Virus genome (UHGV): UHGV-0192279
Direction: 5' to 3' (one strand)
DNA from: a virus
Length of the DNA: 50,405 nt
Part shown: piece by piece, positions 5,236 to 28,170 of the stretch
Position numbering within the stretch: the stretch's first letter is position 1
How the letters are laid out: every line of letters begins with the position of its first letter
Notes under the pieces: generated by a model
Told to the model about the DNA's origin: nothing
Databases searched by the model: none
What the model saw: only the letters and a program-made list of their open reading frames with translations
Made by a program: the position numbers and the translations under genes

Positions 5236-7584
5236 ATGGCTACCAGTGTAGGCACAATTTATTACGAAGTTGACGCAAAAACAGGACAACTTCTTGTAGC
5301 ACAACGACAGGCAGACCAGGCCTTTGACCGTATAGAGCGCGGTGCTAAACAGGCAGATCGCCAGGTAAACACACTGAAAACATCAATCAAAGCACTGACC
5401 AAGGTTATCTATCTGCTAATTGCTGCCGAGGCCGTTAGACAGTTTATGGAAATGGCAGAGCAGGCCAAAATGCTTCGCGTAAAAATCAAAATGCTTACGG
5501 GCGATGCGGAGTCCGCCGGACGGGTTTTCGACGGCCTGAAAGCAATATCCAGGGAAACAGGGCAAAGCCTGAAGGATACTGGCGAGTTATGGCAAGGTCT
5601 TGCCATCTCACTGAAGAACACGTCAGCTACGGAAGGGCAATTACTTAACCTGGTTGGCACTATTCAGAAAATGGGGGCGTTAGGCGGCGCATCAGCGGAA
5701 CAGATGTCTAACTCTATGCGCCAGTTCCGCCAGTCTATAGACGGCGGCGTGCTGCGTGCTGAAGAATTTAACAGCCTACTTGAAAACACCCCGACCATCG
5801 TACAGACAATGGCCCGTCAGATGGGGTTATCTATGGGCAAGTTCCGCGCCGAAATGCTGGACGGCAAGATCACGGCAGAAAGGATGGTTAACGCAATCCA
5901 GGCGGCTACGCAGGAAACAAACGAGCAGTTTGCTCAGTTGCCGCGCACATCCGGCATGGCTATCAATGAGCTTAAAGTCGAAATCATGGGGCTTGTTGAA
6001 CAGCTTGATGATCTTTTCGGCGTATCAGATGGCGTAGTCTCAGCTATCGACTTAATCACAAAAGGCGTTAAGGGGTTAGGTGAGGGCGCTAAATTCGCTA
6101 AAACCTGCTTCGATACACTCAAAACGGCTGGTGGCGAATTCATCGACATGTTTGATGATGTGGCTGTGAAGGCTGGCGAGGTGGCAGAGAAGATCATCGC
6201 AATGGTGACGCCAATCAAGGCACTTATGGACGCCTACAAATGGATGAAGGAGGTTGTAGATAAGCGCAAGGAAGAACTAAATAGCAACAATGAGAAGAAA
6301 TTCGGCCCTACAGTCGGTAAAGTCATGACTTTTGCAAACGACATTAAAAACGCGACTGCCGCTTATGATGAGTTTATGCAGAAACAGGCAGAAGCCAACG
6401 ACGGCAAGATCACCGGATTCGACAAGCCAGTTGATAAGCCTAAAAAGGGTAAGAAGACTGGCAGCAAGAAAAGCAAAGAGGATACGCTTGGTGACAAGGG
6501 TATAAGCGTTTCTGACCAGTACAATAAAGACACCGCCGCCATGCGCAAAGCGTTAGAGAACGGCAAGGCCATTGATGCTGCATTCGCCCAGGGTAAAATC
6601 ACCCTCCTTGAGTACCGCGCCGCGCAAAAAGGGATAGTTAAGGAACGGGATGAAGAATTAGCCCAAATTCAGGTAGATGAATTGCGTGATAAATGGGCGC
6701 AAATAGTAAGCCCGATGAATCAGCTTAAAGGCGAGGTTGACCCTATTAAGCAGGTACAAGATGAATGGGCCGTCCGTAAGCAAAAGCTTATCGACCTGGG
6801 CGCTACCGAAGCGCAACAGAAACAGGCATTGTTAGCCTATGAGCAACAGATCCGCGATCTGAAATGGGAGCAATGGCAGGCGCAAAGCCAGACAAACGGC
6901 CTGATCGGTGATTGCGTTAATGGCCTTAAAGGTGGTATGAGCAATGCGCTTGTCGGCCTGCTTAACGGTACTCAATCATTGAGCGATGTTTTTGCTAACT
7001 TAGGGAGCAATATACTAGGGAATATTGGCAACAGACTTTCTGATATAGCAGCCGACTGGATAGCAGATCAGATCATGATGGAAACACAAAGCAAGGCAAC
7101 TCAAGCAAGTACAACGGCAAGCGCGGTTGCCGCTCAGGGAAGCATCGCGGCGGCGGCGGCCCCGGCGGCGGCGGCAACGGCTGCATCAACTGGCGGTAGC
7201 TGGGCGGCGGCTGGTTCGGCGGCGCTTACTGCGATCACGTCGCTGGCAACATCCATTTTCGGCGGCGGGCGCTTTAATGGTGGTAGCGTAATTGGTGGCA
7301 ATATGTACCGCGTCGGGGAACATAACAGGCCGGAGCTATTCCAGACGTCTAACGGCAACCAATACATGATCCCCGGCGAGAATGGCAGGGTTATCCCGGG
7401 GCGTGATATTGGCGGCGGCGGCGGCGGTATCAGTATGCCTGTTTACATCGACATTCAAACCACAAACGGATTTAGTGACGAAGACAGCCGCAGACTTGAA
7501 CAGACAATGGAACGTGTAGCAATGAAAATGATAACAAGGGAATCGCAAAGACCTGGCGGGATGTTGCAACCGCGCCGCAAATAA
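5236..7584 (+). CDS. tail tape measure protein (782 aa)
   Basis: Largest ORF between chaperone and tail-tip genes; long alpha-helical sequence with Ala/Gly-rich C-terminal region. Confidence 0.85.
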   Translation: MATSVGTIYYEVDAKTGQLLVAQRQADQAFDRIERGAKQADRQVNTLKTSIKALTKVIYLLIAAEAVRQFMEMAEQAKMLRVKIKMLTGDAESAGRVFDGLKAISRETGQSLKDTGELWQGLAISLKNTSATEGQLLNLVGTIQKMGALGGASAEQMSNSMRQFRQSIDGGVLRAEEFNSLLENTPTIVQTMARQMGLSMGKFRAEMLDGKITAERMVNAIQAATQETNEQFAQLPRTSGMAINELKVEIMGLVEQLDDLFGVSDGVVSAIDLITKGVKGLGEGAKFAKTCFDTLKTAGGEFIDMFDDVAVKAGEVAEKIIAMVTPIKALMDAYKWMKEVVDKRKEELNSNNEKKFGPTVGKVMTFANDIKNATAAYDEFMQKQAEANDGKITGFDKPVDKPKKGKKTGSKKSKEDTLGDKGISVSDQYNKDTAAMRKALENGKAIDAAFAQGKITLLEYRAAQKGIVKERDEELAQIQVDELRDKWAQIVSPMNQLKGEVDPIKQVQDEWAVRKQKLIDLGATEAQQKQALLAYEQQIRDLKWEQWQAQSQTNGLIGDCVNGLKGGMSNALVGLLNGTQSLSDVFANLGSNILGNIGNRLSDIAADWIADQIMMETQSKATQASTTASAVAAQGSIAAAAAPAAAATAASTGGSWAAAGSAALTAITSLATSIFGGGRFNGGSVIGGNMYRVGEHNRPELFQTSNGNQYMIPGENGRVIPGRDIGGGGGGISMPVYIDIQTTNGFSDEDSRRLEQTMERVAMKMITRESQRPGGMLQPRRK

Positions 7585-7588
7585 CACT

Positions 7589-7615
7589 AAGGCCGCTATA
7601 AGCGGCCTTTATTTT
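7589..7615 (+). terminator. rho-independent terminator after tape measure gene
   Basis: AGGCCGCT-ata-AGCGGCCT hairpin followed by TTTATTTT. Confidence 0.55.
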
Positions 7616-7901
7616 ACATGGTAAGGATATAAATTAAACAGCACAGGAATGCGGGCGCGGCGAAGTCGCAAACGCTAGCCATATTCCATGCTTTTGGTAA
7701 AAAACCACCATACCACGGCATTCTTTCTCGTTTCCCTCCGCAAAATTCCGCTATGTAACGATATTCAGCCTGTGTGTGTTCCCGCGCAAAAAAGAATGTA
7801 CATCCAATCAGGCCGCCAGTGAGATAATCACCAGTAAGCAGGCCGATAACAACCTGTATAGTCGCCGCAGCCAGTGCGTGACCAATAACGGTTAAATCCA
7901 T
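7614..7901 (-). CDS. small membrane protein (95 aa, about 2 TM helices)
   Basis: Hydrophobic segments; last gene of four-gene antisense cassette. Confidence 0.45.
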   Translation of the reverse strand: MDLTVIGHALAAATIQVVIGLLTGDYLTGGLIGCTFFFAREHTQAEYRYIAEFCGGKRERMPWYGGFLPKAWNMASVCDFAAPAFLCCLIYILTM

Positions 7902-7903
7902 CG

Positions 7904-8089
7904 TTAATCCTCCCGATCGTTCTCAAATGTGCCATCTACAAATTTTTGCAGCCCGGCGATAAGTTGTGTTGCCTGCGATTTTTCAATTACTATGGTTTCA
8001 GTCCCCATAAGTTCGGTTATCCACAGCCGACCATCCTCATCAAGATCTAACCTAACTCCGTAACATAACTCTGTTTCGTCAATAATCAT
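7904..8089 (-). CDS. small acidic protein (61 aa)
   Basis: AGGAGG SD upstream of ATG; preceded by palindrome GTTACGT-gcg-ACGTAAC. Confidence 0.45.
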   Translation of the reverse strand: MIIDETELCYGVRLDLDEDGRLWITELMGTETIVIEKSQATQLIAGLQKFVDGTFENDRED

Positions 8090-8198
8090 TTTTCCTCCTA
8101 TAATCTTCCGTTACGTGCGACGTAACCCCTGCCGAACATCACTAACCAGATGTTCCAGATCTCCCGCTAGGTATATTTCTCCTCCTCCATATTCCACC

Positions 8199-8459
8199 TC
8201 ACTTATGAGCGCCTTTCACTCCGCAATGACAGTTGTATTCCAGGTGATCGATAATTAACCAAATATTCAAATCTTCACTGAACAGCCGCCAGTCAGGATT
8301 GATATCGAATTTAAAGCCATAACCATCACGTAATTTTTTGGGGCGGGCTTCTTTTTTCAGGAAGGCGTTAAGCAACTTCTTGCCTTTCTTGATTACCCGT
8401 TCCTGTGCATTCTTTTGTGCTTTCAGGTTTTTTCGATAGTTACCAGTTTCATAACTCAC
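8199..8459 (-). CDS. small basic protein (86 aa)
   Basis: GTG start with AAGGA SD; Lys/Arg-rich N-terminal half. Confidence 0.4.
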   Translation of the reverse strand: MSYETGNYRKNLKAQKNAQERVIKKGKKLLNAFLKKEARPKKLRDGYGFKFDINPDWRLFSEDLNIWLIIDHLEYNCHCGVKGAHK

Positions 8460-8469
8460 CCCATCGTCC

Positions 8470-8625
8470 TTAGTTAAGCGCCCTCAGGAAGAAATCCCGG
8501 TATTCATCATTCTTCGCGTTCATCATGAATTGACCGTATTTGAATGCGTCGTCGAAACCCTTAACAATTGCTACTTCCACTTGCTCGAATGCGTTGTTTA
8601 GCATCACTACTACATAGCTACTCAT
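8470..8625 (-). CDS. 51-aa ORF (MSSYVVVMLNNAFEQ...)
   Basis: Below 60-aa track cutoff; ATG with GTGAGG SD; first gene of antisense cassette. Confidence 0.3.
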   Translation of the reverse strand: MSSYVVVMLNNAFEQVEVAIVKGFDDAFKYGQFMMNAKNDEYRDFFLRALN

Positions 8626-8695
8626 TTTTGGGCCTCACTTGCTGGTACCGCTTTTCTTCTTGCTTCCTGTATACAGCTTGTTGCTTCGTGTGTGA

Positions 8696-8709
8696 ATACA
8701 TATTGTAAA
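8696..8709 (+). repeat. 14-bp repeat ATACATATTGTAAA copy 1 (contains palindrome TACAtatTGTA), 6 nt upstream of a TATAAT hexamer
   Basis: Exact 14-mer shared with 10301-10314; both in divergent intergenic regions upstream of tail-tip genes. Confidence 0.6.
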
Positions 8710-8795
8710 TTGGCTATAATTCTTGTGTCGAATATCTCATTTTTCGCGTAGAAGTGCGTAAAGATATATACAAAATGTAACTTACAGGAGGGGGT

Positions 8796-9149
8796 ATGCC
8801 GGAAGTGTTCAGATGGACACCACAGAGAAGCTACAGCGTAAACAGTGAGCCTAACGTGTCCGTTATCAAGCTGGGCGATGGCTATGAACAGCGCCAGACA
8901 AAAGGGATTAATCCACTACTTGACAGCTATACGCTGGTCTTTAAAGGTACGAGCGCCGGATGCGGTGACGCCGGAAACGTGGCGCTCCAGGTTGACGCAT
9001 TTTTAAGAGCACGTTGCGCGGTCGAGGCGTTTTACTGGACGCCATCTACAGACGGAGTGAAAAGGCTTTTTGTATGCCGAAAGTGGAGCATGGCGAAAGA
9101 CGGCCCGGTATGCACTCTGAATGCAACGTTTGAACAAGTTATCAATTAA
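8796..9149 (+). CDS. M: minor tail protein M (117 aa)
   Basis: Clear similarity to lambda gpM pattern (FRW...GDGY.QR...WTP...KWS...FEQV.N); AGGAGGGGG SD. Confidence 0.85.
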   Translation: MPEVFRWTPQRSYSVNSEPNVSVIKLGDGYEQRQTKGINPLLDSYTLVFKGTSAGCGDAGNVALQVDAFLRARCAVEAFYWTPSTDGVKRLFVCRKWSMAKDGPVCTLNATFEQVIN

Positions 9150-9162
9150 TGGAGAAGTCAAT

Positions 9163-9348
9163 ATGTATGCTATTTGTGTAGTTGACCGCACGGGCGCTTT
9201 TACATTATTTGACGACTATGAAATCAAAGATCTTACCGTAAAGGATGACAATGGCGAGATCTGGTATCTTCATGACGTTGGTGACGGGTATGTTGGGTGC
9301 AGGTCGAGAGAGGGAAGGGGAGTTTTATTTTTGGTTGATAGGGTATAA
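9163..9348 (+). CDS. small protein between M and L (61 aa)
   Basis: ATG with GGAG SD; track ORF 9121 start is in-frame upstream and overlaps M. Confidence 0.35.
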   Translation: MYAICVVDRTGAFTLFDDYEIKDLTVKDDNGEIWYLHDVGDGYVGCRSREGRGVLFLVDRV

Positions 9349-9448
9349 ACACGACCCCGCGCGAAGCGGGGTTTATAGTGTCGATAGCAGAATGCATAAC
9401 AATCCAATAATGATAATAATCACCTCCAGAACGTAATGTTCGCACATC

Positions 9449-9697
9449 TCATAACGCCCCCTTCAAATATGTCAATCCCTTATCAGTGACGAATGAATGG
9501 TTTACCTGGTTTTCATCCGTCATGATGATGAATAACTTTTCCTGTAGGTATTTCGCTTTTGGGTACAGCGTTAAACAGACCTGGTACAAAACCCCGCGCT
9601 CAATCAGCAAATCAATAAATTCGTGCTCATGATAACCGATAAGGCGGGCGGCCTGTTTCAACGTGTACACATAGTCACCGTGATTGCGCCGCGTCAT
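9449..9697 (-). CDS. small HTH-like protein (82 aa)
   Basis: Helix-turn-helix-like segment YTLKQAARLIGYHEHEFIDLLIERGVL; last gene of three-gene antisense cassette. Confidence 0.4.
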   Translation of the reverse strand: MTRRNHGDYVYTLKQAARLIGYHEHEFIDLLIERGVLYQVCLTLYPKAKYLQEKLFIIMTDENQVNHSFVTDKGLTYLKGAL

Positions 9698-9706
9698 ATT
9701 GCCACC

Positions 9707-10033
9707 TTATTTGCCGAACGCTCCCAGGTTGTCGATACAGAAATCTTTTGCCGCTTTTTCGTATTCACGTTTTGCTTGCGGATCATCTGCCGGGAAACCT
9801 TTTACGTGTATTTCACTAGGACAAGCCTGATCCATAGAGTTGGCAAAATTAACATTGAAGTTAACATTAATATCTTTCGGGTTCATATCTTCCACCTTAT
9901 CCGCTATTTGTACTGGAATGATTTTAAATTCCCTGGCGCGTCCGAAGAATCGAACAAGTTTTTCACCTTCCTCGATCGCCATTTCGTGACTATCATACAA
10001 GCCGTAACCTTCCCAATCCTTACTTCCTGCCAT
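9707..10033 (-). CDS. hypothetical protein (108 aa)
   Basis: ORF in antisense cassette; no recognisable motif. Confidence 0.4.
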   Translation of the reverse strand: MAGSKDWEGYGLYDSHEMAIEEGEKLVRFFGRAREFKIIPVQIADKVEDMNPKDINVNFNVNFANSMDQACPSEIHVKGFPADDPQAKREYEKAAKDFCIDNLGAFGK

Positions 10034-10081
10034 CCATACATCGAGACGATATTTTGCATGGTGTTACCTTTGTGTTTATTG

Positions 10082-10240
10082 TCATGCGTATCTGTTGTAG
10101 CTATTAGCCTTGCAAGCGTAATACTGACGTTCGGCTATATGGAACGGTTTTCCCATCTCTTTGATAAGAACATCCATAAATTTTTTCATGTCGCCTTTCA
10201 CTTCAACAAAAACTTTCTCTGCGTATTTTGCGGGTCTCAT
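10082..10240 (-). CDS. 52-aa ORF (MRPAKYAEKVFVEVKGD...)
   Basis: Below track cutoff; ATG at cassette 5' end with weak SD. Confidence 0.25.
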   Translation of the reverse strand: MRPAKYAEKVFVEVKGDMKKFMDVLIKEMGKPFHIAERQYYACKANSYNRYA

Positions 10241-10300
10241 AGTGTTCTACCTTGTTCAAAGTTGTGCCATTTTGTTGACTCCCCTTCGTTTGAGTAAAAT

Positions 10301-10314
10301 ATACATATTGTAAA
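10301..10314 (+). repeat. 14-bp repeat ATACATATTGTAAA copy 2
   Basis: Exact copy of 8696-8709, 67 nt upstream of the L start codon. Confidence 0.6.
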
Positions 10315-10380
10315 AATATGGATCAATCCATTTTGGCATGATCTTGCGTGATGCAGATCACAAAATGACAAGGTGAGAAA

Positions 10381-11085
10381 ATGCGCAATATACCTACAGA
10401 GATGATTATTGATTCCGTCGATGCCGGAGTCGGCGCGGTAATTGACTTGTTCGAACTGGACCTTACGCCCCTGGGTGGCGAGGTTATCCGCTTCCATTCC
10501 GGCGCAAACGGCTATTACGGCCCGGTTATCTGGAAGGGGGCGGCTTACAACAGTTACCCCATCGAGGCTACTGGCTTCGAAATGAAAAACGAAGGCGTTT
10601 ATTCGCGCCCTCAAATGGTTGTAGCCAACATCGGCGGGCTAATTACGGGGATGAATAACGATTTCAACGACCTAAGAGGCATGAAGGTTACGCGCCGCCA
10701 GGTGGAGGTGAAATATCTTGACGCTGTTAACTTCCCTAACGGAAACCCCGACGCAGATCCATCTATTGAAGCTGTGTCTTTTTACGTCGTGGAGTCCATG
10801 AGCGAAGAAACAGCGGATCAGGTGCAATATGAACTGTCAACGCCAATTGATGCAGATAAGGCTGTTATTCCTGGGCGCACCATCCTTGCTGACGTTTGCC
10901 AGTGGCAATACAGAGGCGACGGGTGCATGTATTCTGGCGGCCCGGTCGCAACGGATAAAGATTCACCAACAAGTGACCCAACGTTAGACAAGTGCAGTCA
11001 CCGCCTTAGCGGTTGCCGTTTGCGTTTCCCGCGCCCGGCAGCACTGCCGATCTCCTGTTTCCCTGGTTCCAGCAAGGTAGGTTAA
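10381..11085 (+). CDS. L: minor tail protein L (234 aa)
   Basis: Strong similarity to lambda gpL (RPT..V.N..G..TGM, RRKV..LDAVNF.NGN, GR..LA..C.W.YRGD.C.YSG, DKCS..LSGC). Confidence 0.9.
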   Translation: MRNIPTEMIIDSVDAGVGAVIDLFELDLTPLGGEVIRFHSGANGYYGPVIWKGAAYNSYPIEATGFEMKNEGVYSRPQMVVANIGGLITGMNNDFNDLRGMKVTRRQVEVKYLDAVNFPNGNPDADPSIEAVSFYVVESMSEETADQVQYELSTPIDADKAVIPGRTILADVCQWQYRGDGCMYSGGPVATDKDSPTSDPTLDKCSHRLSGCRLRFPRPAALPISCFPGSSKVG

Positions 11086-24851: not shown

Positions 24852-24863
24852 GTTTACAGAATG
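24846..24863 (-). repeat. 18-bp repeat CATTCTGTAAACATGAGG (minus strand), copy 2; ATG here is the start codon of the phosphoesterase gene
   Basis: Near-identical to 23710-23727; contains perfect palindrome TACAgaaTGTA. Confidence 0.6.
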
Positions 24864-24965
24864 TATATTTATTTCCCGTAAAACGCGCTACAACGCAAAA
24901 TCCCACCGCGTAACCCACTTATAAGAGTGCAGTGTCTTTCTTGCGTCAGAGGCGCTATCAGGTGG

Positions 24966-25154
24966 CTATTTTTTGATTTTTAAGATGACATAAACGTTAG
25001 CTTGTTGGCGTCCATGCAATTTACTCCTGCAAATGGCTATTACTCCGGCCTGTTCCAGAGATCGGATCGCTAGCTTAACACTTTGCCGACTCACTCCCAA
25101 CCTGTCAGCAAGCATGATAAGTGATATTTGATAACCTCCCGTCCGGCAATGCAC
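24966..25154 (-). CDS. small winged-helix/HTH protein (62 aa)
   Basis: Segment DRLGVSRQSVKLAIRSLEQAGVI is HTH-like; GTG start, weak SD. Confidence 0.3.
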   Translation of the reverse strand: MHCRTGGYQISLIMLADRLGVSRQSVKLAIRSLEQAGVIAICRSKLHGRQQANVYVILKIKK

Positions 25155-25207
25155 AGCCAGCAGATCGTAAACTTTACGCTCAGTTTTGGTTAATTTCGTG
25201 AAAAGCC

Positions 25208-25293
25208 CTTAAACGCTCTATAACGAAGAAAACGCATTAAGCCAAGCAAGTATAGCACTTGATATGTTTTATCGCGTTAGGGGAGCGTTTAAG
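25208..25293. repeat. 11-bp perfect inverted repeat CTTAAACGCTC ... GAGCGTTTAAG enclosing 64 bp
   Basis: Arms at 25208-25218 and 25283-25293 in intergenic gap of leftward operon. Confidence 0.5.
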
Positions 25294-25326
25294 TGGGTTA
25301 TTTTGGGTTTTTGTGAAGCTTGGTAG

Positions 25327-26746: not shown

Positions 26747-26780
26747 TCGCTTCGCAGCGACACCGGATTTTTAAAGAGCA
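26747..26780 (-). promoter_or_regulatory. nut-like site (boxA-like TGCTCTTTAAAAA + hairpin TCGCT-gcga-AGCGA) in leader of leftward operon
   Basis: Minus-strand boxA matches lambda nutL/rrn boxA consensus; 8 nt later a 5-bp stem with GNRA-type loop. Confidence 0.45.
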
Positions 26781-26979: not shown

Positions 26980-27591
26980 ATGCGAGCGCAAGGCATGAGC
27001 CAGGATTCACTCGCGGATCTCATGGGGATAACTAAAGGCGGCCTGTCACACTGGCTTAACGGTCGCCGCGAGCCAAATCTTGAAGATATTGCGCGGATTA
27101 TGCGGGCACTTGGTCGTCGGCAGTTCACTGTTACCCATGATGGAATGGTCATTGATGATTCTGTTTCTAACACGTTACCGGGAGCGCCGCAGCGTGATTT
27201 AGGCAGTTACCCGGTTGTTGACTGGAAGGACACAGTAAACAATATGGAAGATACAAGGCGATCAACATTACCACACGTTACGACTAGCGTTATTTGTTCA
27301 GATGATAGTTACTGGCTGGTTGCTAAAGGTGAATCAATGAACGCGCCGCAGGGGTTGAGCATCCCTGCCGGGACGATGATACTTGTTGACCCACACGCGC
27401 CAGCTATCGATGGAAAGCTGGTTATAGCACAGCTTGAGGAAGGGCAAATACCGACGTTTAAACAGTTGATTATTGATGGAGGTCAAAGGCTTTTACGTTC
27501 GCTTAACCCGCTGTATCCACCAATCCCCATGAATCCTGAATCGAAAATCATAGGCGTGGTGGTGGACGCGAAGATCGTAAACCTGCCATAA
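26980..27591 (+). CDS. CI-like repressor (HTH_XRE + S24 LexA-like peptidase), 203 aa
   Basis: N-terminal HTH (SQDSLADLMGITKGGLSHWLNGRREP) and C-terminal S24 domain with Ser (GESM) and Lys (TFKQL) dyad. Confidence 0.85.
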   Translation: MRAQGMSQDSLADLMGITKGGLSHWLNGRREPNLEDIARIMRALGRRQFTVTHDGMVIDDSVSNTLPGAPQRDLGSYPVVDWKDTVNNMEDTRRSTLPHVTTSVICSDDSYWLVAKGESMNAPQGLSIPAGTMILVDPHAPAIDGKLVIAQLEEGQIPTFKQLIIDGGQRLLRSLNPLYPPIPMNPESKIIGVVVDAKIVNLP

Positions 27592-27622: not shown

Positions 27623-27714
27623 GCCCTGAAAACACCAAAACGTAAACATAAAACGTGTTTTATTATTTAAATATCAATGACATATAAAATATTTAAAAAA
27701 GTATACAAAATGGA

Positions 27715-27743
27715 TTGACTCGGTGTATCACGGGGCGTATATT
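27715..27743 (+). promoter_or_regulatory. candidate early promoter (pL analogue): TTGACT -17- TATATT
   Basis: Near-consensus -35 and -10 with 17-bp spacer; TACA-N3-TGG motif abuts -35; about 40 nt upstream of boxA. Confidence 0.5.
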
Positions 27744-27785
27744 TCGAGGCAAAGGAGGTAGCAAGGCAGGGGAAAGAAGGTTACT

Positions 27786-27823
27786 TGCTCTTTAACAATC
27801 TGGTCAGCCGCTGGAAGTGCGGC
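27786..27823 (+). promoter_or_regulatory. nutL-like site: boxA TGCTCTTTAACAAT + boxB-like hairpin GCCGC-tggaagt-GCGGC
   Basis: boxA identical to E. coli rrn boxA core; hairpin 7 nt downstream; located in leader of N-like gene. Confidence 0.6.
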
Positions 27824-27879: not shown

Positions 27880-28170
27880 ATGACCGTAACAATTATGTAT
27901 GGCAAATGTGATAGCAAAATAAATGCCAGGGAACGCAGAAGAATAAAAAGAGAAAACGAAAGAAAATCATCACCTGCAATCAATAAAACTGACAATGTTG
28001 ATAAAGCTATTCGTTTTGCAAACGTAGAAAGATGCAAACCGAATGGCATTAAAGAGCATCGCAAAGGTGCGGCAAAATGGTATGCGGAAAACGAAAGCGG
28101 CAATTACTACCACGCAACACAACCGCGTAGTCTAGGGGAAAAACCCCTGGATAAAGTACGCTACAGATAA
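27880..28170 (+). CDS. N-like transcription antiterminator (96 aa)
   Basis: N-terminus MTVTIMYGK...NARERRRIKRENERK resembles P22 gp24/lambda N arginine-rich motif; AAGGAG SD; preceded by nut site. Confidence 0.65.
   Translation: MTVTIMYGKCDSKINARERRRIKRENERKSSPAINKTDNVDKAIRFANVERCKPNGIKEHRKGAAKWYAENESGNYYHATQPRSLGEKPLDKVRYR

Follow-up and report, generated by a model that had tools for sequence, protein, structure and literature searches.

The virus genome UHGV-0192279 (50,405 nucleotides, the whole of which is called the window below) represents a temperate siphophage or prophage of Escherichia coli in the mEpimmI (mEp021-like) group. The subject here is a cassette of three small genes that runs antisense to its tail genes, between M and L. 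The closest described counterparts are genes 71-74 of phage mEp021 and the corresponding genes of mEp010, mEp013, mEp044, mEp515, mEp554 and MagusPhagus, which form an orthologous antisense M-L operon with the same intergenic region and terminator (PMC11893012). In the pangenome of that group, a KilAC-like gene was ranked as core by manual analysis, without a function, and no published function was found for the mEp021-group operon genes (PMC11893012). The mEpimmI phages are reported to be as frequent in human-gut E. coli as the lambdoid phages. On balance, the cassette is probably a self-contained, moron-like accessory operon that lies antisense in the tail cluster and encodes host- or competitor-directed, non-virion proteins. 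It is read in this way because it has its own predicted promoter, a shared terminator, a foreign base composition, a mosaic gene content and small products that are most likely non-structural.

Extra genes in late clusters are known from lambdoid phages as morons, an example in the tail-gene region being HK97 gp15 (PMC3594210). In phi80, an antisense gene (taiEcA/atiEcA) within the late operon is expressed in the lysogen, and this expression is reduced when Q is supplied (PMC11364771). KilAC-type activities, namely antirepression, SOS inhibition and division block, have been tested with AriS, CreP, P1 KilA and phi11 gp07. On its own, the KilAC domain of Listeria phage AriS inhibits the SOS response (PMC9043618). 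CreP, a 103-residue stand-alone KilAC protein of Acinetobacter baylyi, is bacteriostatic and causes filamentation (bioRxiv 10.1101/2024.01.05.574328).

Compared with the mEp021 group, the window differs in the genes of the operon. The mEp021 group has allele B of gene 1 and an intact gene 2 product of 116-117 amino acids (aa), and mEp021 adds a 75-aa gene; in the window, gene 1 is instead the rare allele A, gene 2 is frameshifted and the KilAC gene is not followed by a gene for a 45-aa peptide. The KilAC protein of the group is 82 aa long, 90-98% identical to that of the window and last in the operon. Like the lambdoid morons, the cassette consists of extra genes in a late cluster, with promoter and terminator signals of its own and a lower G+C content, and it is missing from the corresponding junction of the nearest outgroup. 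Unlike them, it is a three-gene operon rather than a single gene and is group-wide rather than sporadic. Also, unlike HK97 gp15, none of the three products is predicted to be a membrane exclusion protein. Expression of the moron type, from the prophage, may apply here, and the likeness of the antisense promoter to an early promoter is compatible with either the presence or the absence of immunity-repressor control. As in the noncontiguous operon of phi80, genes on the opposite strand interrupt the late operon, a geometry that is read here from the sequence. Unlike phi80 Tai (about 26 kDa, encoded before the packaging genes), all products here are smaller, no sequence relationship is claimed, and there is no sign here of tail-assembly inhibition or of a counter-defence gene. 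The KilAC protein shares PF03374 with CreP and AriS, as a single domain of 82 aa against the 103 aa of CreP, and contains a TxKG motif. In contrast to CreP (CRISPR-cas locus) and AriS (early regulatory region), it is encoded in a tail-module operon, and the kinship is distant. The locus is already in the GenBank records of the group as a 'putative antirepressor' and hypothetical proteins, and both classes to which it belongs, moron-like units and KilAC proteins, are familiar. The present finding is descriptive and of a familiar type.

The initial annotation had placed antisense open reading frames (ORFs) of 52, 108 and 82 aa between M and L, and their coordinates are exactly as it gave them. 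The features of this part of the window are as follows.

8796-9149, plus strand: M (PF05939, E 2e-28)
9163-9348, plus strand: 61-aa ORF 3' of M (phrog_3249), counterpart of mEp021_70
9354-9372, both strands: predicted terminator hairpin (terminator scan)
9449-9697, minus strand: gene 3, 82-aa ORF (PF03374)
9707-10033, minus strand: gene 2, 108-aa ORF (phrog_38567)
10059..10057, minus strand: canonical ATG start of gene 2, with an A4 run at 10055..10052 that is A5 in intact alleles (sequence comparison)
10082-10240, minus strand: gene 1 allele A, 52-aa ORF
Between gene 1 and L: intergenic region of 140 bp
10298..10335, minus strand: predicted sigma-70 promoter of the antisense operon (consensus scan)
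10334..10342, plus strand: candidate extended -10 for a rightward L promoter, TGGCATGAT here and TGGTATGAT in most relatives (alignments)
10381-11085, plus strand: L (PF05100, E 9e-71), followed by K, I and J

A KilAC gene lies antisense between M and L, at the same site, in all 52 related phages and prophages compared. The order of the operon across these 52 loci is gene 1, gene 2, an optional 75-79-aa gene (g3), the KilAC gene (gene 3 of the window) and an optional 45-aa gene (g5), and the operon converges on the 61-aa ORF. The g3 gene is found in seven of the loci and g5, which encodes a hydrophobic peptide, in 33. At the DNA level, the cassette region matches Escherichia phage MagusPhagus at 86% over 81% of 1.9 kb. 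Further matches are to mEp021, mEp010, mEp013, mEp044, mEp515 and mEp554, and to prophages in 35 of 5426 complete E. coli genomes.

That the cassette interrupts a lambda-like M-L junction, as first proposed from the sequence, agrees with the nearest outgroup. In Erwinia phage vB_EhrS_49, whose L is 69% identical, M and L overlap and there is no insert. M and L are contiguous in lambda too, and the match to L extends into the annotated M gene in many lambda-like phages. Because the nearest outgroup lacks the insert, the M-L block appears to have been acquired in, and then fixed in, the mEpimmI lineage. A sporadic insertion is ruled out, since the cassette is fixed at its site in 52 of 52 relatives and the KilAC gene is core. 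At 42.4%, the G+C content of the cassette is below that of M (50.8%) and that of L (52.8%). The 61-aa ORF is part of the extra M-L block and lies outside the antisense operon; it is present in all 52 loci and missing from the outgroup M-L junction. The gene content of the operon shows mosaic replacement typical of accessory loci, with two unrelated gene 1 alleles, several alleles of the gene 2 N-domain and the optional g3 and g5.

The genes of the block are under purifying selection, with ratios of non-synonymous to synonymous substitution (dN/dS) of 0.07-0.22 across the 52 loci. The values are 0.10 for the KilAC gene, 0.08 for the C-terminal part of gene 2, 0.07 for the 52-aa allele and 0.12 for the 61-aa ORF. 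Since these ratios are low and the opposite-strand ORF is not conserved, the cassette ORFs are real genes. The opposite-strand ORF, 224 codons on the plus strand over the cassette, was dismissed as a shadow ORF; in relatives, a median of 126 codons stays open. An Rfam scan of 7400-10600 returned no RNA families at E<=1.

Gene 3 is the most conserved member of the operon, with 85-100% identity in the 52 loci. Its product matches PF03374 (KilAC/ANT) with 27.8 bits (gathering cut-off 25.3, E 3.4e-6), residues 10-79 aligning to profile positions 23-102 of 108. A profile search retrieves 115 PF03374 proteins, and the product aligns to the C-terminal domain of Ant/Rha proteins of 230-265 aa from Vibrio, Cronobacter and Pseudomonas phages. 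It is 20-36% identical to other KilAC domains. The structure model, built from 71 sequences, has a predicted local distance difference test (pLDDT) score of 86. As modelled, the gene 3 product consists of a KilAC/ANT domain standing alone, its winged helix-turn-helix (HTH) fold resembling those of MerR and excisionase. The HTH-like segment that had been suspected in the 82-aa protein was thus correct, given the PF03374 match and the winged-HTH model. Of the two motifs described for CreP and P1 KilA, TxKG is present as TDKG at residues 71-74, with T71, K73 and G74 nearly invariant in the 71-sequence alignment, and the position of the AKxLxL motif reads QAARLIG, which is only a partial fit. The Shine-Dalgarno sequence of gene 3 overlaps the stop codon of gene 2, and the two genes are 9 nt apart. 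Between the gene 3 stop and the terminator (9373-9448, minus strand), 33 of the 52 relatives encode the 45-aa hydrophobic peptide, MKIEVLALIIMGLIVFG...; in the window, to judge by eye, all that apparently remains is a Shine-Dalgarno-like GGAGGTGAT with a short leftover that lacks an ATG.

Gene 2 is an orphan. Its family is confined to the mEpimmI group among the sequences searched and normally has 116-117 aa, and the 108-aa ORF of the window is a 5'-truncated form that restarts at Met10. The canonical ATG is out of frame because of a 1-nt deletion that turns A5 into A4, as read by comparison with P0001 (117 aa, MQKYRLDVWMAGSK...) and with the DNA of STEC308. A sequencing or assembly error is ruled out, since the A4 allele recurs in at least six independent samples or assemblies. 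The intact N-domain is missing in 4 of the 52 loci, including the window, and all four keep the C-terminal module translatable. STEC308 (locus L004, 3100-3260) has an independent nonsense change, TGG to TAG at codon 16, and 99-aa forms of gene 2 are found in two viral contigs (loci L057 and L058). In the gene 2 model, the N-terminal 52 residues are confidently beta-beta-alpha-beta and the C-terminal half is of low confidence. Variation has the form of several alleles of the N-domain and of a patch at 59-72, while the last 45 residues are nearly invariant. An exhaustive search of 1.84 billion representatives with the gene 2 profile gave 13 matches, essentially the family itself and fragments, and a fold search with the model gave no informative matches. 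An unrelated phage encodes a 56-aa stand-alone relative of the C-module, with no KilAC gene beside it.

Allele A of gene 1 is found in 4 of the 52 loci, where it replaces the usual allele B of 51-67 aa. It is unrelated to allele B and to gene 2. Allele B may be a paralogue of the gene 2 N-domain, to judge from the sequences (hhalign P 0.001). In the phage collection searched, the only other homologues of allele A are small genes of virulent coliphages, with 50-58% identity. These lie between denB and ndd in Gaprivervirus T-even phages and in the small-gene cluster of Deseoctovirus C1. Allele A gave no matches in Pfam, PHROG, NCBIfam or PADLOC and no confirmed relatives in viral metagenome contigs.

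PADLOC and NCBIfam gave no matches for any cassette protein, PHROG matches were to families of 'unknown function' only, and no cassette protein matched a structural Pfam family. Also, the three proteins and their profiles had no sequence relatives among solved structures, the best E-value being 0.33.

The predicted promoter of the antisense operon lies in the 140-bp region upstream of L. It has a -35 element, TTGATC (10326..10321), a 17-nt spacer and a -10 element, TATATT (10303..10298), with CAAAATGG ahead, and the minus strand of the region reads CAAAATGGATTGATC, 17 nt, TATATT. An exact 13-mer, CAAAATGGATTGA, together with the 17-nt spacing and the -10 TATATT, is common to this promoter and to an early promoter, TTGACT-17-TATATT, at 27706-27742. 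The early promoter is situated between a CI-like repressor gene and an N-like gene, directly upstream of an rrn-type boxA, and is also found in mEp021 and mEp013. Both the -35 and the -10 of the antisense promoter are kept in 39 unique intergenic sequences, across which the L-upstream region is conserved except for five spacer bases and the part adjoining the swapped gene 1. Conservation of this region exceeds that of the synonymous sites of the flanking genes. At the other end of the operon, the G+C-rich hairpin ACCCCGC-ttcgc-GCGGGGT (9354-9372), from the minus-strand terminator scan, is a predicted intrinsic terminator common to the antisense operon and the converging unit of M and the 61-aa ORF. 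Its counterpart is annotated on both strands in mEp021 and on the plus strand in mEp013 (GenBank records). The candidate extended -10 at 10334..10342 may restart transcription into L, back to back with the antisense promoter.

Some further signals were seen in the same regions. Three GATC (Dam) sites lie within about 35 bp of the back-to-back promoters upstream of L (window 10321-10360), two of which sites are kept in relatives, and a dyad, GTGAT-N4-ATCAC, is directly upstream of the L ribosome-binding site. The CI-like repressor gene occupies 26980-27591, and the N-like antiterminator is a 96-aa arginine-rich ORF at 27880-28170. The rrn-type boxA occurs at 26768-26780 and 27785-27797 (TGCTCTTTAACAA rightward, TGCTCTTTAAAAA on the other strand), which fits the nutR1/nutL layout of mEp021.

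The initial annotation had also drawn attention to a 14-mer, ATACATATTGTAAA, beside both antisense cassettes. It does occur beside both, with exactly two copies in the window, both on the plus strand. When up to two mismatches are allowed there are four matches, against 0.70 expected. The relevant sites are as follows.

8696..8709: M-side copy of the 14-mer, exact match, within the predicted promoter of the neighbouring cassette
10301..10314: L-side copy of the 14-mer, exact match, with the core palindrome TACA-TAT-TGTA at 10302-10312
8697, 8769, 10302, 24855, 28171 and 47027: palindrome sites
Within the 140-bp L-upstream region: TACATATTGTA

On the minus strand, the 14-mer (TTTACAATATGTAT) covers the end of the spacer and the start of the -10 in the antisense operon promoter. 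In the promoter predicted for the neighbouring cassette, with -35 TCGACA (8731..8726), an 18-nt spacer and -10 TACAAT (8707..8702), the 14-mer supplies the -10. The palindrome within it, TACA-N3-TGTA (TACANNNTGTA), has six copies in the window where 0.54 would be expected, all but one of them intergenic. An identical 12-mer, TACAAAATGTAA, is found at sites 8769 and 28171; the former is 16 nt upstream of the M start and the latter about 20 nt upstream of the ATG that follows the N-like gene. The relatives have one copy of the palindrome ahead of L and another immediately ahead of M, and loci L014 and L015 have a third TACA-W3-TGTA site. The L-side 14-mer is kept in all seven aligned relatives, two of them with one substitution, and also in most of the fetched loci. 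The M-side position reads AGCCATTTTGTAAAC, not the exact 14-mer, in most relatives examined, and the exact M-side duplication is seen in this window and perhaps in its closest relatives but is missing from the relatives aligned.

The 14-mer had been suggested to mark a shared insertion or regulatory junction. The regulatory part of this suggestion stands, with the 14-mer located in promoter spacer and -10 sequences, and the insertion part does not, as there is no homology boundary at the 14-mer. Because it is located inside promoters, and because the operator-like palindrome is over-represented in intergenic DNA, the 14-mer is a predicted promoter or operator element rather than an insertion scar. 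ACAAAATGK was tried as an operator as well, with 12 copies against 1.6 expected, but was rejected since several of these are start-codon contexts. A 475-bp stretch at 24852-25326 has no wholly internal ORFs of 90 aa or more. It starts with TTTACAGAATGTATATTT, a near copy, on the plus strand, of the spacer and -10 of the cassette promoter, and could drive a small RNA or a short ORF.

If the accessory-operon reading is correct, the operon would be transcribed leftward from its own sigma-70 promoter in the 140-bp region, and the transcript would end at the hairpin terminator shared with the converging M unit. Such a noncontiguous-operon layout would allow expression independent of late transcription, whether in the lysogen, shortly after infection or both, and converging late transcription would be expected to dampen the antisense operon. 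By analogy to tested KilAC domains, the KilAC protein may act on the host or on resident repressors, through a block of division or of the SOS response or through an antirepressor-type action. The variable upstream genes may serve in conflicts between phage and host or between phages. When the operon is expressed and what its products do biochemically are inferred here.

Several points weigh against this reading. The operon is present in 52 of 52 relatives and its KilAC gene is core, so that an integral phage function would fit no less well than a dispensable moron. The case for the promoter and terminator consists solely of consensus matches, and promoter-like sites are no commoner than in shuffled sequence. 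No cassette protein matches a known defence model in PADLOC, the version searched (PADLOC-DB 2023) being older than the Tai/Ati systems, and gene 3 resembles tested KilAC proteins at the domain level only. The presumed non-virion status is drawn from sequence; in mEp021, mass spectrometry has found 16 virion proteins. The initial annotation would have had its interpretation overturned by conserved virion components; the products do prove to be conserved, whereas a structural role is not indicated for a KilAC winged-HTH protein, a homologue of virulent-phage small genes and an orphan. In keeping with this, it is very improbable that the three proteins are group-specific tail-assembly factors or minor virion components acting with M and L. 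Their fixed position in the tail module and their presence in every group member would suit such a role, but the genes have the opposite orientation, promoter and terminator signals of their own and a G+C content below that of the tail genes. Moreover, gene 1 is swapped for a non-homologous gene and gene 2 is truncated in circulating lineages, the homologies are to KilAC and to small virulent-phage genes, and the closest outgroup makes a tail of the same type without these proteins.

An integral function could also be regulatory. The 82-aa KilAC protein might be a phage transcription factor that binds TACA-N3-TGTA and controls the back-to-back promoters upstream of M and L, in a circuit of the phage's own rather than an add-on, for autoregulation of the antisense cassettes and/or re-initiation of tail-gene transcription past the terminators. 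Its fold is nearest to DNA-binding winged-HTH proteins of the excisionase/MerR/Cox type and its gene is core and highly conserved (85-100% identity), yet in other phages KilAC sits C-terminal to a separate DNA-binding domain (Bro-N, Rha or AntA), and AriS acts through it on the host and not on phage genes (PMC9043618). The palindrome is over-represented, with five of six copies intergenic, including those in both cassette promoters, and is kept upstream of L and M; these sites might equally serve a CI-like repressor, a Cro-like protein or a host factor. The terminators after H and after the 61-aa ORF imply antitermination or separate promoters for M and L, for which a conserved TATAAT upstream of M and TGGTATGAT upstream of L may be noted. 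Taken together, this regulator is considered unlikely, if well worth keeping in mind. A toxin-antitoxin-like pair of genes 2 and 3 appears quite unlikely. Here KilAC would arrest growth and the invariant C-module of gene 2, folding on binding, would neutralise it; counting the ParE-like pair of the neighbouring cassette, there would be two modules for addiction or abortive infection in the tail cluster. CreP, itself a stand-alone KilAC protein, acts as a bacteriostatic toxin, and gene 2 is directly upstream of the KilAC gene, whose Shine-Dalgarno sequence overlaps its stop, but g3 splits the two genes in 7 of 52 loci and the 56-aa relative of the C-module has no KilAC neighbour in its unrelated phage. 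Like many antitoxin tails, the invariant C half of gene 2 receives a low-confidence model, although the low pLDDT may only reflect an invariant alignment. All four 5'-disrupted alleles of gene 2 retain a translatable C-terminal part, and in the neighbouring cassette a ParE_like gene comes after a 51-aa one. Against these observations, the termini of gene 2 and KilAC do not visibly co-vary, and there are no matches to PADLOC models or toxin-antitoxin families.

The accessory-operon reading is therefore retained as the probable one. As a core antisense operon with a stand-alone KilAC gene, the locus is a tractable one for the role of KilAC in enterobacterial phages, the candidate activities being a division or SOS block, antirepression and DNA binding. 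It also illustrates a possible regulation of antisense units inside late operons. In addition, the fixed ends, combined with a swappable gene 1 and gene 2 N-domain, form a natural experiment on parts that meet variable partners.

The neighbouring cassette precedes M, in the following order.

5236-7584, plus strand: tape-measure gene (H)
7589-7609: predicted terminator 3' of H
7614-8625, minus strand: first antisense cassette, between the tape-measure gene and M

This cassette has four genes in the window and one to five among relatives. A 51-aa gene (phrog_29810) and, after it, an 86-aa ParE_like gene (PF24732, E 2e-10) resemble a toxin-antitoxin pair; the products of the remaining two have 61 aa and 95 aa (phrog_1443). 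It is decidedly unlikely, if conceivable, that the cassettes on both sides of M are coordinated growth-arrest modules (the ParE-like pair, and KilAC with the gene 2 tail), organized as noncontiguous operons that share a TACA-N3-TGTA operator. If this were true, late transcription or the invasion of a competitor phage would tip the balance to arrest, and the hypervariable N-domains and swapped gene 1 would be sensors or decoys. The locus would then hold a new KilAC-based toxin-antitoxin or defence family in a phage tail module. In vB_EhrS_49 (locus L072, 3365-3595), a single antisense 76-aa gene lies between the tape-measure gene and M, and the tape-measure/M junction looks like a more general site for antisense additions.

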